Below are positions 51,932 to 54,512 of a stretch of 64,000 nt of DNA, piece after piece (within the stretch, counting starts at the first letter, position 1; every line of letters begins with the position of its first letter). Position numbers and translations under genes: made by a program. Location: IMG/VR virus record IMGVR_UViG_3300026097_000805, positions 64,001 to 128,000 of that record, one strand, 5' to 3'. Under the pieces are notes generated by a model that worked only from the letters and a program-made list of their open reading frames with translations, was not told where the DNA came from and made no database searches. Source of the DNA: a virus.

Positions 51932-52007
51932 TGGTGCTAGAGGACGGAATCGAACCGCCGACACGAGAATCTTCAATACCCTGCTCTACCGACTGAGCTA
52001 CTCTAGC
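51932..52007 (-). tRNA. tRNA-Phe(GAA)
   Basis: 76-nt cloverleaf, encoded CCA; U-U mismatch in the anticodon stem. Confidence 0.9.
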
Positions 52008-52011
52008 ATTA

Positions 52012-52082
52012 TGGTAGTAAATGATAGAATCGAACTATCTCTTCAGGCTTATGAGACCCGAGTCCGGACCACCGGATTTACT
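52012..52082 (-). tRNA. Atypical tRNA(CAT), Met or Ile2
   Basis: Acceptor AGTAAAT/ATTTACT, T-loop TTCGATT, CCA; shortened D region; 71 nt. Confidence 0.75.
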
Positions 52083-52083
52083 A

Positions 52084-52166
52084 TGGAGTGCAAGACAGGA
52101 CTCGAACCTGCATAGTCTTACGACACGGATTTGCAATCCGATGCATAACCATTCTGCCACTTGCAC
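52084..52166 (-). tRNA. tRNA-Cys(GCA) with long variable arm
   Basis: Anticodon GCA, U73, CCA; 13-nt variable region GTC-GTAA-GAC-TAT; 83 nt. Confidence 0.9.
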
Positions 52167-52167
52167 A

Positions 52168-52242
52168 TGGCTGGGGCGGAAGGACTCGAACCTCCAATCG
52201 ACAGAATCAAAATCTGTTGCATTACCAATTATGCTACACCCC
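52168..52242 (-). tRNA. tRNA-Gln(TTG)
   Basis: U1-A72, G73, CCA. Confidence 0.95.
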
Positions 52243-52248
52243 AAAACT

Positions 52249-52324
52249 TGGTGGACTCGCTCGGATTCGAACCGAGGACCAATTGATTAAAAGTCAACTG
52301 CTCTACCAACTGAGCTACGAGTCC
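52249..52324 (-). tRNA. tRNA-Lys(TTT)
   Basis: Canonical 76-nt cloverleaf, CCA. Confidence 0.96.
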
Positions 52325-52325
52325 A

Positions 52326-52409
52326 TGGTGGGGAAGGTAGGATTCGAACCTACTCACTTTACGAACTGATTTACAGTCAGCCGCGCCTCTCCAACTGCGC
52401 CGCTTCCCC
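52326..52409 (-). tRNA. tRNA-Tyr(GTA)
   Basis: Class II cloverleaf, CCA. Confidence 0.95.
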
Positions 52410-52410
52410 A

Positions 52411-52486
52411 TGGTGTCAAAGGATGGACTTGAACCATCGACCTAACGGTTATCAGCCGTTTGCTCTACCAACTGAGCTACATTGAC
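52411..52486 (-). tRNA. tRNA-Ile(GAT)
   Basis: Canonical cloverleaf, CCA. Confidence 0.95.
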
Positions 52487-52491
52487 AAACT

Positions 52492-52565
52492 TGGCACCGG
52501 TCCAGGGAATCGAACCCCGAGTTTCAGTTTTGGAGACTGACGTGTTGCCATTACACTAGACCGAT
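52492..52565 (-). tRNA. tRNA-Trp(CCA)
   Basis: Anticodon arm TCAGT-CTCCAAA-ACTGA, G73, CCA. Confidence 0.93.
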
Positions 52566-52586
52566 ATAAAACTTTTTCCTCCTACT

Positions 52587-52627
52587 AAAAATAAAAAACC
52601 CCTGCTAATATCTCTACTAGCAGGGGT
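52587..52627 (-). terminator. Intrinsic terminator of attenuator 2
   Basis: ACCCCTGCTA-10 nt-TAGCAGGGGT followed by TTTTTATTTTT. Confidence 0.9.
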
Positions 52628-52651
52628 GCGTTAAATAACTTTTCTTGACTA

Positions 52652-52729
52652 CTATGTCAAAAGCACACTCCTGCCTTCGCTAAACCAGCGAATGCAATAT
52701 TGTTGAATATGTTTCATCATTGTAGTCAT
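52652..52729 (-). CDS. Leader peptide 2, MTTMMKHIQQYCIRWFSEGRSVLLT (25 aa)
   Basis: Between a promoter and a terminator; codons 19-22 complementary to the terminator 5' arm; codons 4-16 match the downstream tRNAs. Confidence 0.85.
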   Translation of the reverse strand: MTTMMKHIQQYCIRWFSEGRSVLLT

Positions 52730-52766
52730 TTCTATTTCTCTTTGTTTAATTTCTTAGTATGTGTAT

Positions 52767-52795
52767 ACTATACACGTTTATTTATCTTCTGTCAA
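52767..52795 (-). promoter_or_regulatory. Composite promoter for leader 2 and tRNA array 2
   Basis: TTGACA-17 nt-TATAGT with GATAAATA (52779-52786) in the spacer. Confidence 0.85.
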
Positions 52796-52810
52796 CCGTT
52801 TATTTTACTT

Positions 52811-52834
52811 TTTGACAATTTAGATACAATATTT
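52811..52834. repeat. Trailer arm of the 24-bp inverted repeat enclosing tRNA array 1
   Basis: TTTGACAATTTAGATACAATATTT is the exact reverse complement of 54211-54234. Confidence 0.92.
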
Positions 52835-52838
52835 TAAA

Positions 52839-52913
52839 TGGTACACCGTAGGGGAATCGAACCCCTCTTTCCTGCGTGAAAGGCAAGCGTCCTAACCGAT
52901 AGACGAACGGTGC
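52839..52913 (-). tRNA. tRNA-Glu(TTC)
   Basis: Canonical cloverleaf, CCA. Confidence 0.95.
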
Positions 52914-52918
52914 ATATA

Positions 52919-52995
52919 TGGCGGAACCGACGAGACTCGAACTCGCGACATCCTGCGTGACAGGCAGGCACTCTAACCAACTGAGCTACGGCTCC
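52919..52995 (-). tRNA. tRNA-Asp(GTC)
   Basis: Canonical, G73, CCA. Confidence 0.96.
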
Positions 52996-53001
52996 AATAA
53001 T

Positions 53002-53094
53002 TGGCGGTGAGGGTGGGATTTGAACCCACGGAACGCTATTAACGTTCGTCTGTTTTCAAGACAGGTGCAATAAGCCGGACTCTGCCACCTCACC
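53002..53094 (-). tRNA. tRNA-Ser(TGA)
   Basis: Class II, long variable arm, G73, CCA. Confidence 0.95.
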
Positions 53095-53101
53095 AATAAA
53101 T

Positions 53102-53387
53102 TGGCAGCCCGTTAGCCACACACCGTTGGAATGATGCTTGTGACCCCTACACTGTAATAGCCCTGCTGTCTAGTTTATCAGTCTAGGGCACAAACTATTG
53201 TTTAGGTATAGGACTTTTGCTTCTCACTAAAGACCGCCACGGACCAACGGACGGCACTCTTTAGAACTAACACTAATGCAAAGAGCAAGTGGTTAACCAA
53301 TGCATCGACCTAGTTACTTGATAGACTATATCATATCTTTCGCTACTATCGGGCGGTTCAGGCCCTTATCGCCGTCTCTTTCGAGCT
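53102..53387 (-). ncRNA. Unidentified ~286-nt structured RNA ending in CCA
   Basis: 5' AGCUCG pairs with 3' CGGGCU before G-CCA; several internal stems; sits in a tRNA slot of the array; no listed ORF. Confidence 0.6.
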
Positions 53388-53397
53388 AGTGTGTAGT

Positions 53398-53473
53398 TGG
53401 TAGCGGGAGCAGGAATCGAACCTACCTCAGTCCGGCTTATGAGACCAGTGAGTTCCCAGAACTCTATCCCGCA
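53398..53473 (-). tRNA. Initiator-like tRNA-fMet(CAT)
   Basis: 1:72 mismatch (U-U), GCGGG acceptor, CCA. Confidence 0.85.
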
Positions 53474-53476
53474 ACT

Positions 53477-53550
53477 TGGAGCGGATACCGAGAATCGAAC
53501 TCGGACGATCACGTTGGCAACGTGAGAGGCTACCTTTACATCATATCCGC
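53477..53550 (-). tRNA. tRNA-Gly(GCC)
   Basis: U73, CCA. Confidence 0.93.
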
Positions 53551-53554
53551 AATA

Positions 53555-53630
53555 TGGTGGAGATACGCGGGATCGAACCGCGGACCTGAAGCTTGCAAAG
53601 CTACTGCTCTCCCATCTGAGCTATATCCCC
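53555..53630 (-). tRNA. tRNA-Ala(TGC)
   Basis: G3-U70, CCA. Confidence 0.96.
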
Positions 53631-53635
53631 ATTAA

Positions 53636-53712
53636 TGGTCTCGGTAGATGGATTCGAACCACCGACCCTCTGGTCCCAAACCAGATGCGCTACCAGACTG
53701 CGCTATACCGAG
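53636..53712 (-). tRNA. tRNA-Pro(TGG)
   Basis: Canonical cloverleaf, CCA. Confidence 0.96.
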
Positions 53713-53719
53713 TTTAATA

Positions 53720-53802
53720 TGGTGCCCTGGGGGAGACTCGAACTCCCACTCCGAAGAACTGGTACCTAAAACCAGCGTGTCTACCAATTCCACCACCAGG
53801 GC
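53720..53802 (-). tRNA. tRNA-Leu(TAG)
   Basis: Class II, CCA. Confidence 0.95.
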
Positions 53803-53808
53803 AATTTA

Positions 53809-53883
53809 TGGTGCTGATGGAGAGAATCGAACTCCCAATCTACGCATTACAAGTGCGTTGCCTTACCATTCGGCCACATCAGC
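53809..53883 (-). tRNA. tRNA-Thr(TGT)
   Basis: Canonical cloverleaf, CCA. Confidence 0.95.
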
Positions 53884-53889
53884 AATATT

Positions 53890-53964
53890 TGGAGCGGGTG
53901 GACGGGATCGAACCGACGACACCTGACTTGGAAGGACAGTGCTCTACCACTGAGCTACACCCGC
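53890..53964 (-). tRNA. tRNA-Gly(TCC)
   Basis: U73, CCA. Confidence 0.95.
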
Positions 53965-53968
53965 AATA

Positions 53969-54057
53969 TGGCGGAGCGACTGGGAGTCGAACCCAGTGAA
54001 CGCGGTTAGCGTTCTACGGATTAGCAATCCGCTGCATTACCATCCTGCCCCCGCTCC
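53969..54057 (-). tRNA. tRNA-Ser(GCT)
   Basis: Class II, G73, CCA. Confidence 0.95.
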
Positions 54058-54127
54058 GTATGTGTTTGGCTCTACCCTCCCCTCTGGGCGATTTAACTAA
54101 CGAGGCATCTTGCGTTAGTACCATGTT

Positions 54128-54202
54128 TGGCTCCCGGTGTTGGAATCGAACCAACCAATGACGGATTAACAGTCCGCTCCCCCACCTTGGGGGCAACCGG
54201 GA
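54128..54202 (-). tRNA. tRNA-Asn(GTT)
   Basis: U1-A72, G73, CCA. Confidence 0.93.
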
Positions 54203-54210
54203 ATAAACCT

Positions 54211-54234
54211 AAATATTGTATCTAAATTGTCAAA
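54211..54234. repeat. Leader arm of the 24-bp inverted repeat enclosing tRNA array 1
   Basis: Exact reverse complement of 52811-52834. Confidence 0.92.
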
Positions 54235-54261
54235 GAGCGTGTAGCAAGTTCTTCTTGCTAC
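54228..54261 (-). promoter_or_regulatory. rrn-like antitermination leader (boxB-like hairpin plus boxA-like motif)
   Basis: GTAGCAAG-5 nt-CTTGCTAC then CGCTCTTTGACA (10/12 to E. coli rrn boxA TGCTCTTTAACA). Confidence 0.65.
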
Positions 54262-54272
54262 GTTATGTATAT

Positions 54273-54301
54273 ACTATACTACTTTATTCTGTGCCTGTCA
54301 A
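54273..54301 (-). promoter_or_regulatory. Sigma70 promoter directly upstream of tRNA array 1
   Basis: TTGACA-17 nt-TATAGT. Confidence 0.85.
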
Positions 54302-54321
54302 CTACTATTTTGCCTTAAACC

Positions 54322-54358
54322 AAAAAAAAACCTTCCTTGCTGTGTGCTTGGAAGGTTT
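54322..54358 (-). terminator. Intrinsic terminator of attenuator 1
   Basis: AAACCTTCC-13 nt-GGAAGGTTT with a 9-U tract. Confidence 0.85.
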
Positions 54359-54384
54359 TTGGAATCTTGTTAGCTAATGCTCGC

Positions 54385-54474
54385 TTACGTTCCGCAACCC
54401 TCCAGGCATAGACTACCCGCTGGATTTTCCGATCCAGGTGTCCATGTATCTAATGTGAGTACGAATGTAAACAT
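54385..54474 (-). CDS. Leader peptide 1, MFTFVLTLDTWTPGSENPAGSLCLEGCGT (29 aa)
   Basis: AAGGA SD; codons 24-27 complementary to the terminator 5' arm; codons 9-22 match the downstream tRNAs. Confidence 0.85.
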   Translation of the reverse strand: MFTFVLTLDTWTPGSENPAGSLCLEGCGT

Positions 54475-54504
54475 TGAAAGTTTTTTCCTTATTAACTATG
54501 CATT

Positions 54505-54512
54505 TATTTATC
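54505..54512 (-). promoter_or_regulatory. Late-promoter-like box GATAAATA upstream of leader 1
   Basis: Same 8-mer precedes many structural genes in this window; resembles T4 late TATAAATA. Confidence 0.65.

Follow-up and report, generated by a model that had tools for sequence, protein, structure and literature searches.

In a 64,000-nucleotide stretch of viral DNA (positions 64,001–128,000 of the IMG/VR record IMGVR_UViG_3300026097_000805; hereafter, the window), we analyzed a pair of small open reading frames (ORFs), designated leader 1 and leader 2, that precede the tRNA genes of the virus. The 20 tRNA genes, every one on the – strand, form three blocks designated arrays A, B and C; leader 1 lies before arrays A and B (unit 1), and leader 2 lies before array C (unit 2). 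The phage genome has no tRNA for His, Arg or Val, and two of its tRNAs carry the anticodon CAT, for which structure does not tell apart the initiator, elongator and Ile2 types. An earlier reading of the letters alone (hereafter, the sequence-only reading) had described the same order of elements before both arrays, i.e. a promoter, an ORF of 25–29 codons, an intrinsic terminator with a U tract, and then the tRNAs. The coordinates confirm this order, as shown in Table 1, and add a promoter that had been overlooked, P1.

Table 1. Features of the tRNA region and of the two leader units, in positions of the window
Feature	Position	Strand	Remarks
Promoter-like phage-type motif GATAAATA upstream of leader 1	54512–54505	–	Kept before leader-1 homologs in G004 and L092
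Shine–Dalgarno (SD) sequence AAGGA of leader 1	54490–54486	–	
Leader 1 ORF, 29 codons + stop, ATG start	54474–54385	–	Homologs of 28 codons in G004 (L068) and 31 codons in L092
Leader 1 roster block, codons 9–22 (D T W T P G S E N P A G S L)	54450–54409	–	
Antiterminator strand of unit 1, TGGAGGGTT, near copy of the terminator 3΄ arm	54404–54396	–	
Terminator 1, intrinsic: stem-loop 54360–54326, U9 tract 54330–54322	54360–54322	–	–15.3 kcal/mol
Sigma70-like promoter P1, TTGACA-17-TATAGT, 11/12 match	54301–54273	–	Past terminator 1 and before tRNA-Asn
tRNA array A: Asn, Ser-gct, Gly-tcc, Thr, Leu-tag, Pro, Ala, Gly-gcc, Met-cat	54202–53398	–	
tRNA array B: Ser-tga, Asp, Glu	53094–52839	–	
Promoter P2, consensus-like TTGACA-17-TATAGT; GATAAATA at 52786–52779 within the spacer	52795–52767	–	Kept in G004 and L004
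Leader 2 ORF, 25 codons + stop, ATG at 52729	52729–52652	–	Residues 1–19 are the same in G004 and L004
Leader 2 roster block, codons 4–16 (M M K H I Q Q Y C I R W F)	52720–52682	–	
Antiterminator strand of unit 2, GGCAGGAGTGTG	52675–52664	–	
Terminator 2, intrinsic: 13-bp GC-rich stem 52627–52598, U tract 52597–52588	52627–52588	–	–21.5 kcal/mol
tRNA array C: Trp, Ile, Tyr, Lys, Gln, Cys, Met-cat, Phe	52565–51932	–	

We compared the codons of each leader with the anticodons of the tRNAs located downstream. For the central codons, here called the roster block, the sequence-only reading had counted matches to the leader's own array at 13 of 14 codons in leader 1 and at 11 of 13 codons in leader 2, and reading the sequence again gave the same counts; the exceptions in leader 2 are CAT (His) and CGC (Arg). 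When whole ORFs were scored with strict wobble, leader 1 covered 12/12 tRNAs of arrays A and B and leader 2 covered 8/8 tRNAs of array C, in agreement with the earlier claim that every elongator tRNA downstream is represented. The corresponding values for the other array were 4/8 (leader 1 against array C) and 5/12 (leader 2 against arrays A and B), and the difference between own and other coverage was supported by the Fisher test (P = 0.019 in the window and P = 0.004 in the related contig G004). The further claim of an almost absent cross-match holds for the central blocks, in which the only cross-matching codons are TGG and ATG, but not for the whole ORFs, in which 5 of the 28 codons of leader 1 and 6 of the 24 codons of leader 2 match the other array.

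We further determined how often stop-free codon runs in all six frames of the whole genome name the same tRNAs. All 11 elongator anticodons of arrays A and B were named by a single run of 14 or 16 codons, namely leader 1; the frequency was 1 of 174,219 runs at 14 codons, and 133 of 105,589 at 28 codons, the length of the whole ORF. For array C, the frequencies were 35 of 190,313 at 12 codons and 1,081 of 119,404 at 24 codons, and leader 2 was one of three 14-codon runs in the genome that name all eight tRNAs. These scans bear on the explanation that nothing beyond chance or descent is involved, i.e. that no translation of the ORFs takes place, that the hairpins serve simply as operon terminators or insulators, and that the codons match by a coincidence recognized post hoc. 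The central blocks were indeed chosen after the data had been seen, and the precision over whole ORFs is just 0.46–0.68. However, the genome-wide scans single out leader 1 and place leader 2 among the top three, and the reading frames are kept in homologs: the leader-1 homologs have 28–31 codons, and the ORF part of the alignment of a sister family contains three-base gaps that preserve the frame. In addition, an alternative-frame ORF at 54514–54413 breaks off in G004 after its first five codons.

Related viral and metagenomic contigs were gathered via the neighbouring phosphatase and DNA patterns. A degenerate pattern of the leader-1 block had no match in viral contigs, and the relatives of leader 1 were recovered via the conserved promoter. 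In L004 and G004/L068, the core of leader 2 is the same as that of the window, and array C additionally contains tRNA-Arg(acg) and tRNA-His(gtg), so that the block match is 13/13. The two codons of leader 2 that appear as mismatches in the window, CAT and CGC, are thus matched in these relatives by tRNA-His(gtg) and tRNA-Arg(acg), respectively, which indicates that leader and array co-vary. The leader-1 homologs of G004 and L092 are found in the same setting as leader 1 (GATAAATA, SD sequence, ORF, terminator, sigma70-like promoter and tRNA-Asn); the array following them includes tRNA-Val(tac), and the leaders contain 4 and 3 Val codons, respectively, versus 1 in the window. In a distant set of contigs that share the terminator CCCCGAAGTAGAAATACTCCGGGG, leaders of 32–40 codons with 18–20 different amino acids precede large arrays, and in the small leader L090, three ATA codons are followed by tRNA-Ile(tat). 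Homologous leaders of the MMNKTM and MMTQM types start ~6–7 nt past the –10 hexamer and, judging from this spacing, may be leaderless.

Among 20 units, coverage of the downstream array was full or one tRNA short in 19 (the exception being L085, with 6/8), compared with ~60–70% for random coding windows. The sequence-only reading had proposed a permutation test of whether leader codons co-vary with array anticodons in relatives, and permutation of the leader/array pairs supported co-variation. The coverage of a leader's own array was 0.976 versus 0.753 for permuted pairs, and 0/20,000 permutations reached the own value; when one unit was retained per lineage, the values were 0.968 and 0.708, and 0/50,000 permutations reached the own value. 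When leaders were swapped within a genome, own pairs gave 1.00 versus 0.33–0.50. The P values from the permutations are generous because related units are not independent, a weakness shared neither by the within-genome contrasts nor by the phage described next.

The same layout was observed in a cultured phage of an unrelated lineage, Caulobacter phage phiCbK (JX100813; L094), in which we analyzed the tRNA region at 47000–53000. Three units, each composed of a promoter, a short ORF and an annotated rho-independent terminator, precede groups of tRNAs, and an antiterminator alternative is present in each. Every ORF covers its own tRNA group and the other groups much less, with the exception of the two-tRNA Glu/Asp group, which is also covered by unit 3. 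The ORF gp083, annotated as 'hypothetical protein', holds the exact codons of all nine annotated tRNAs downstream. The phiCbK genome paper contains no mention of attenuation or leaders (PMC3556154). Given this recurrence, the reappearance of the pattern in G004, L004 and L092 despite altered sequences and the permutation tests, an explanation by chance or descent alone appears very improbable.

The sequence-only reading had also stated that the 3΄ end of each ORF can pair with the 5΄ arm of its terminator. In the predicted folds, TGGAGGGTT of unit 1 paired with AACCTTCCA at 54357–54349 when the terminator 3΄ arm was withheld, and GGCAGGAGTGTG of unit 2 paired with CGCACCCCTGCT at 52630–52619 when the 3΄ arm was absent. 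The duplex between the ORF 3΄ end and the terminator 5΄ arm was stronger than that of shuffled sequences in both units (unit 1, –19.5 kcal/mol versus –10.7 ± 2.8, P = 0.004; unit 2, –20.4 kcal/mol versus –12.6 ± 2.9, P = 0.008), so that the claim stands. This tendency extends to the relatives. In 10/10 folded units, the terminator 5΄ arm pairs with the G-rich ORF 3΄ end once the 3΄ arm is unavailable, and 14/14 homologous units beat their shuffles (P ≤ 0.04), with a terminator/antiterminator alternative in each. Duplexes formed between an ORF end and its own spacer and 5΄ arm had a mean of –19.8 kcal/mol, compared with –12.8 kcal/mol for crossed pairs. In the sister family (eight sequences), a 17-bp antiterminator helix is 99.3% paired and contains 3 compensatory pairs, and its covariation score was reached by no shuffle; one of the compensatory changes turns the last residue from V to A, and the pairing is kept. 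Finally, in the predicted full-length minimum-energy folds, including those of both units of the window, the 5΄ half of the ORF sequesters the antiterminator strand, much like the 1:2 hairpin of trp. When 51500–55000 was scanned permissively against Rfam, only tRNAs exceeded the threshold, and the best leader match was PyrG_leader (31.5 bits versus a threshold of 65, E = 0.16).

The transcription signals differ between the two units. In unit 2, tRNA-Trp starts 32 nt past terminator 2, and no promoter-like site was found in the interval between them; array C would therefore depend wholly on read-through, and unit 2 would be the only visible transcription route into this array. In unit 1, P1 lies past terminator 1, and its core, GGCAAAATA(G/A)TAGTTGACAGGCAC, is kept in G004 and L092, including the upstream GGCAAAATA element; moreover, the order of terminator and then promoter recurs in the G002 family. 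Since this conserved promoter bypasses leader 1, arrays A and B are not strictly gated. The earlier claim that each array is gated by its leader is thus too strong for arrays A and B, which appear to have an unconditional input, and would apply strictly only to array C, which has no promoter of its own. Because P1 also feeds these arrays, unit 1 would control only the share of read-through that originates from the GATAAATA promoter, and leader 1 could only add this share. It is conceivable that arrays A and B are expressed constitutively at first and on demand later in infection.

The promoter role assigned to GATAAATA is suggested by its distribution in the genome, in which 16 copies are found on the gene-rich – strand versus 1 on the + strand. 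Fourteen of the 16 copies on the – strand are intergenic, and 13 are located ≤150 nt upstream of a gene on the same strand. The motif thus probably represents a class of phage promoters. It resembles the T4 late promoter TATAAATA, and it typically stands 25–35 nt upstream of gene starts; examples of the motif lie at 41989, 33027, 31337, 28532 and 17846 on the – strand.

The arrangement of promoters and terminators could also be explained if the units were independent micro-genes, in which promoter, ORF and terminator make a small mRNA that stops at the unit's own terminator and a trans-acting or passenger peptide, whereas expression of the tRNAs relies on ordinary promoters (P1) and on leaky read-through. 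In that case, the codon match would reflect selection for translation of the peptide by the phage tRNAs, or for a peptide that reports on them. The presence of a conserved sigma70-like promoter directly past terminator 1 in the window and in relatives fits this explanation, as do the strength of the terminators and the conservation of C-terminal motifs such as FCGW..DR.GGS and YCIRW.SEG. However, array C lacks a promoter of its own. In addition, the ORF 3΄ end always mimics the terminator 3΄ arm and co-varies with the spacer and the 5΄ arm even when the encoded residue changes, and the middle of the peptide varies freely among homologs while the arrays are still covered. We accordingly consider the micro-gene explanation unlikely.

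These results suggest instead that the two units are ribosome-mediated (leader-peptide) transcription attenuators of the trp/his/ilv type that act on tRNA genes and thereby provide feedback control of tRNA supply, a reading to which we assign a probability of roughly 0.65. In the proposed mechanism, the central ORF codons spell out which tRNA species lie downstream, and the terminator 5΄ arm can pair either within the terminator or with the G-rich copy of the 3΄ arm at the ORF end. If the leader is translated and all of the listed codons are decoded fast, the ribosome would reach the ORF end and cover the antiterminator strand, so that the terminator would form and transcription would stop. 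If any listed codon is decoded slowly because its tRNA is scarce, uncharged or damaged, the ribosome would stall upstream, the antiterminator would form and RNA polymerase would enter the tRNA genes. The phage tRNAs produced in this way would relieve the stall, and the circuit would therefore operate as a negative-feedback homeostat of decoding capacity.

Several observations weigh against attenuation or limit its reach. First, the SD sequence of leader 2 is weak (AGAGA), and its W and F codons are located only 6–12 nt before the antiterminator strand, which a ribosome stalled there would probably mask; furthermore, the folds indicate that equilibrium favours the terminator state by ~7–20 kcal/mol. 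Second, among four homologs, antiterminator 2 of the window shows no double-sided covariation, only wobble-compatible changes; double-sided covariation is missing from the window's antiterminators because only 2–4 close homologs exist. Third, the conserved P1 (present in G004 and L092, with the same order in the G002 family) means that leader 1 is not the sole gate of arrays A and B. Fourth, the roster is inexact: leader 1 also contains codons for W, F and C, which belong to the other array, and leader 2 retains H and R codons although the phage has no tRNAs for them. Finally, coverage was not significant for the G002-type leaders and L042. Amino-acid richness, which had made some of the leaders look like 'pangrams', was also discarded as a line of evidence, as it was only moderately unusual (P = 0.005–0.08 per homologous leader) and, for the two leaders of the window taken singly, not unusual.

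We also considered what such attenuators might have evolved to sense. Phage tRNAs can counter tRNA-targeting defences, and it is possible that the units arose chiefly as detectors of host tRNAs being cut or depleted by anticodon nucleases or by further abortive infection systems, upon which the replacement set would be released. The proposed mechanism would respond to the loss of any listed tRNA. However, the rosters span nearly all amino acids (18–20 in homologs), well beyond the few tRNAs known as nuclease targets, and the data fit feedback on codon supply, a simpler reading, equally well. We therefore regard a primary role in sensing defence as quite unlikely, and the trigger by an anticodon nuclease (PARIS, retron) that was envisaged in the sequence-only reading as unsupported speculation.

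Attenuation by ribosome stalling is best known from the amino acid operons of enterobacteria, such as ilvGMEDA (Leu/Val/Ile), thr (Thr/Ile), trpL, hisL, pheL and leuL. The phage units share with these a promoter-proximal short ORF with codons cognate to the function of the regulated genes, and an intrinsic terminator that excludes, and is excluded by, an antiterminator overlapping both the end of the ORF and the terminator 5΄ arm; the pairing predicted between the ORF 5΄ half and the antiterminator strand resembles the 1:2 hairpin. They differ in that tRNAs rather than biosynthetic enzymes would be regulated, in that the roster names 8–12 species, mostly once or twice, whereas the enterobacterial leaders contain runs of codons for one to three amino acids, and in that unit 1 has a second promoter past the terminator. 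In the pheST attenuator of E. coli (pheM leader), a leader peptide controls a component of the translation machinery according to the supply of charged tRNA. The phage units have this kind of target in common with pheM; however, pheM controls an aminoacyl-tRNA synthetase and senses one amino acid, whereas the phage units would control tRNA genes and sense many codons.

In T-box riboswitches, as in the proposed mechanism, the status of tRNA decides between terminator and antiterminator ahead of translation-related genes; however, a T-box binds uncharged tRNA directly, without an ORF, and no Rfam leader family reached threshold in the region. Short ORFs that respond to amino acids are also represented by the leaderless polycysteine attenuators of mycobacteria (bioRxiv 10.1101/834739), which some of the phage leaders would resemble if they are leaderless; the mycobacterial ORFs are chromosomal, respond to a single amino acid and act on protein-coding operons.

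The sequence-only reading knew of no earlier description of attenuators placed before tRNA genes, and a literature search likewise found none, although most subscription journals lay outside its reach, so that novelty is unproven. While the class of mechanism is a textbook one, the tRNA-gene target and the roster of many codons are, to our knowledge, new. The general view is that tRNA genes are controlled at their promoters and that phage tRNAs are passively expressed. Leaders of this type are found in two lineages, namely the metagenomic group (leaders of 25–54 codons, many with 18–20 amino acids) and phiCbK-like Caulobacter phages. It thus seems somewhat more probable than the converse that codon-roster attenuators represent a general and previously undescribed way in which phages of unrelated lineages couple the transcription of tRNA genes to real-time decoding speed.

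If true, the attenuators would provide direct feedback from decoding to tRNA synthesis and would explain why phage tRNA genes are arranged in fixed blocks behind terminators. They would also constitute a natural multi-input sensor of aminoacyl-tRNA supply, in which a single leader could monitor as many as 20 aminoacyl-tRNA pools simultaneously, and in which a duplicated leader could split the roster between two arrays, as in the window. The question is also relevant to the way in which phages deal with mismatch, starvation or attack of the tRNA pools in their hosts. Since phiCbK is a cultured phage with the same layout, the idea is directly testable.

With regard to the genome as a whole, the label 'jumbo phage' used in the sequence-only reading is not established by the record, which is 179,647 bp long and estimated to be ~50% complete. 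The genome is ~92% coding, and the genes near the tRNA region include those for a ClpP-like prohead protease, a DNA ligase and a tail-fibre-like protein. A genome scan for further units of a short ORF and a terminator yielded none that was convincing. A BLAST search against GenBank phages revealed no close relative, only isolated tRNA matches, and protein relatives were <60% identical; a T5-like phage, considered because of the small ORFs in the tRNA region of such phages, was dropped on these grounds. A blastn search of both leader units against GenBank phages gave no match.

Several further elements were observed in and around the arrays. Directly past terminator 2, a conserved SD-like sequence, AGGAGGAAAAAG (52587–52566, – strand), is followed by no start codon; at the same position in the relative L066, a second ORF of 18 codons, rich in Y, W, C and F, is located just before tRNA-Tyr. 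Inserted ORFs interrupt the tRNA arrays of relatives (L004:301–615; gaps in L058), and one of them, located just before tRNA-Asn, resembles an HNH endonuclease when its motifs are inspected by eye. G004 also contains a divergent tRNA-Tyr-like sequence that is ARAGORN-negative. Between tRNA-Met of array A and tRNA-Ser(tga) of array B, there is a tRNA-free gap of 303 nt (53397–53095, – strand), the first 128 nt of which are 86% identical to a segment that separates tRNA-Leu from tRNA-Gly in two relatives, G005 and G001; this gap has no Rfam match and may be a structured RNA.

Arrays A and B are flanked by a perfect 22-bp inverted repeat, TTGACAATTTAGATACAATATT, with copies at 54233–54212 on the – strand and 52812–52833 on the + strand, separated by 1.4 kb. 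Once transcribed, the two copies would pair in a duplex of approximately –32 kcal/mol, and in G004 both copies contain two matching changes that preserve the complementarity. The repeat resembles a long-range processing stem, comparable to the stems for RNase III in rRNA operons, or else a site acting at the DNA level. Outside the window, ARAGORN identified a permuted tmRNA-like gene in the genome (C1:154692–155076, – strand) with the tag ANDNYAPETALAA.

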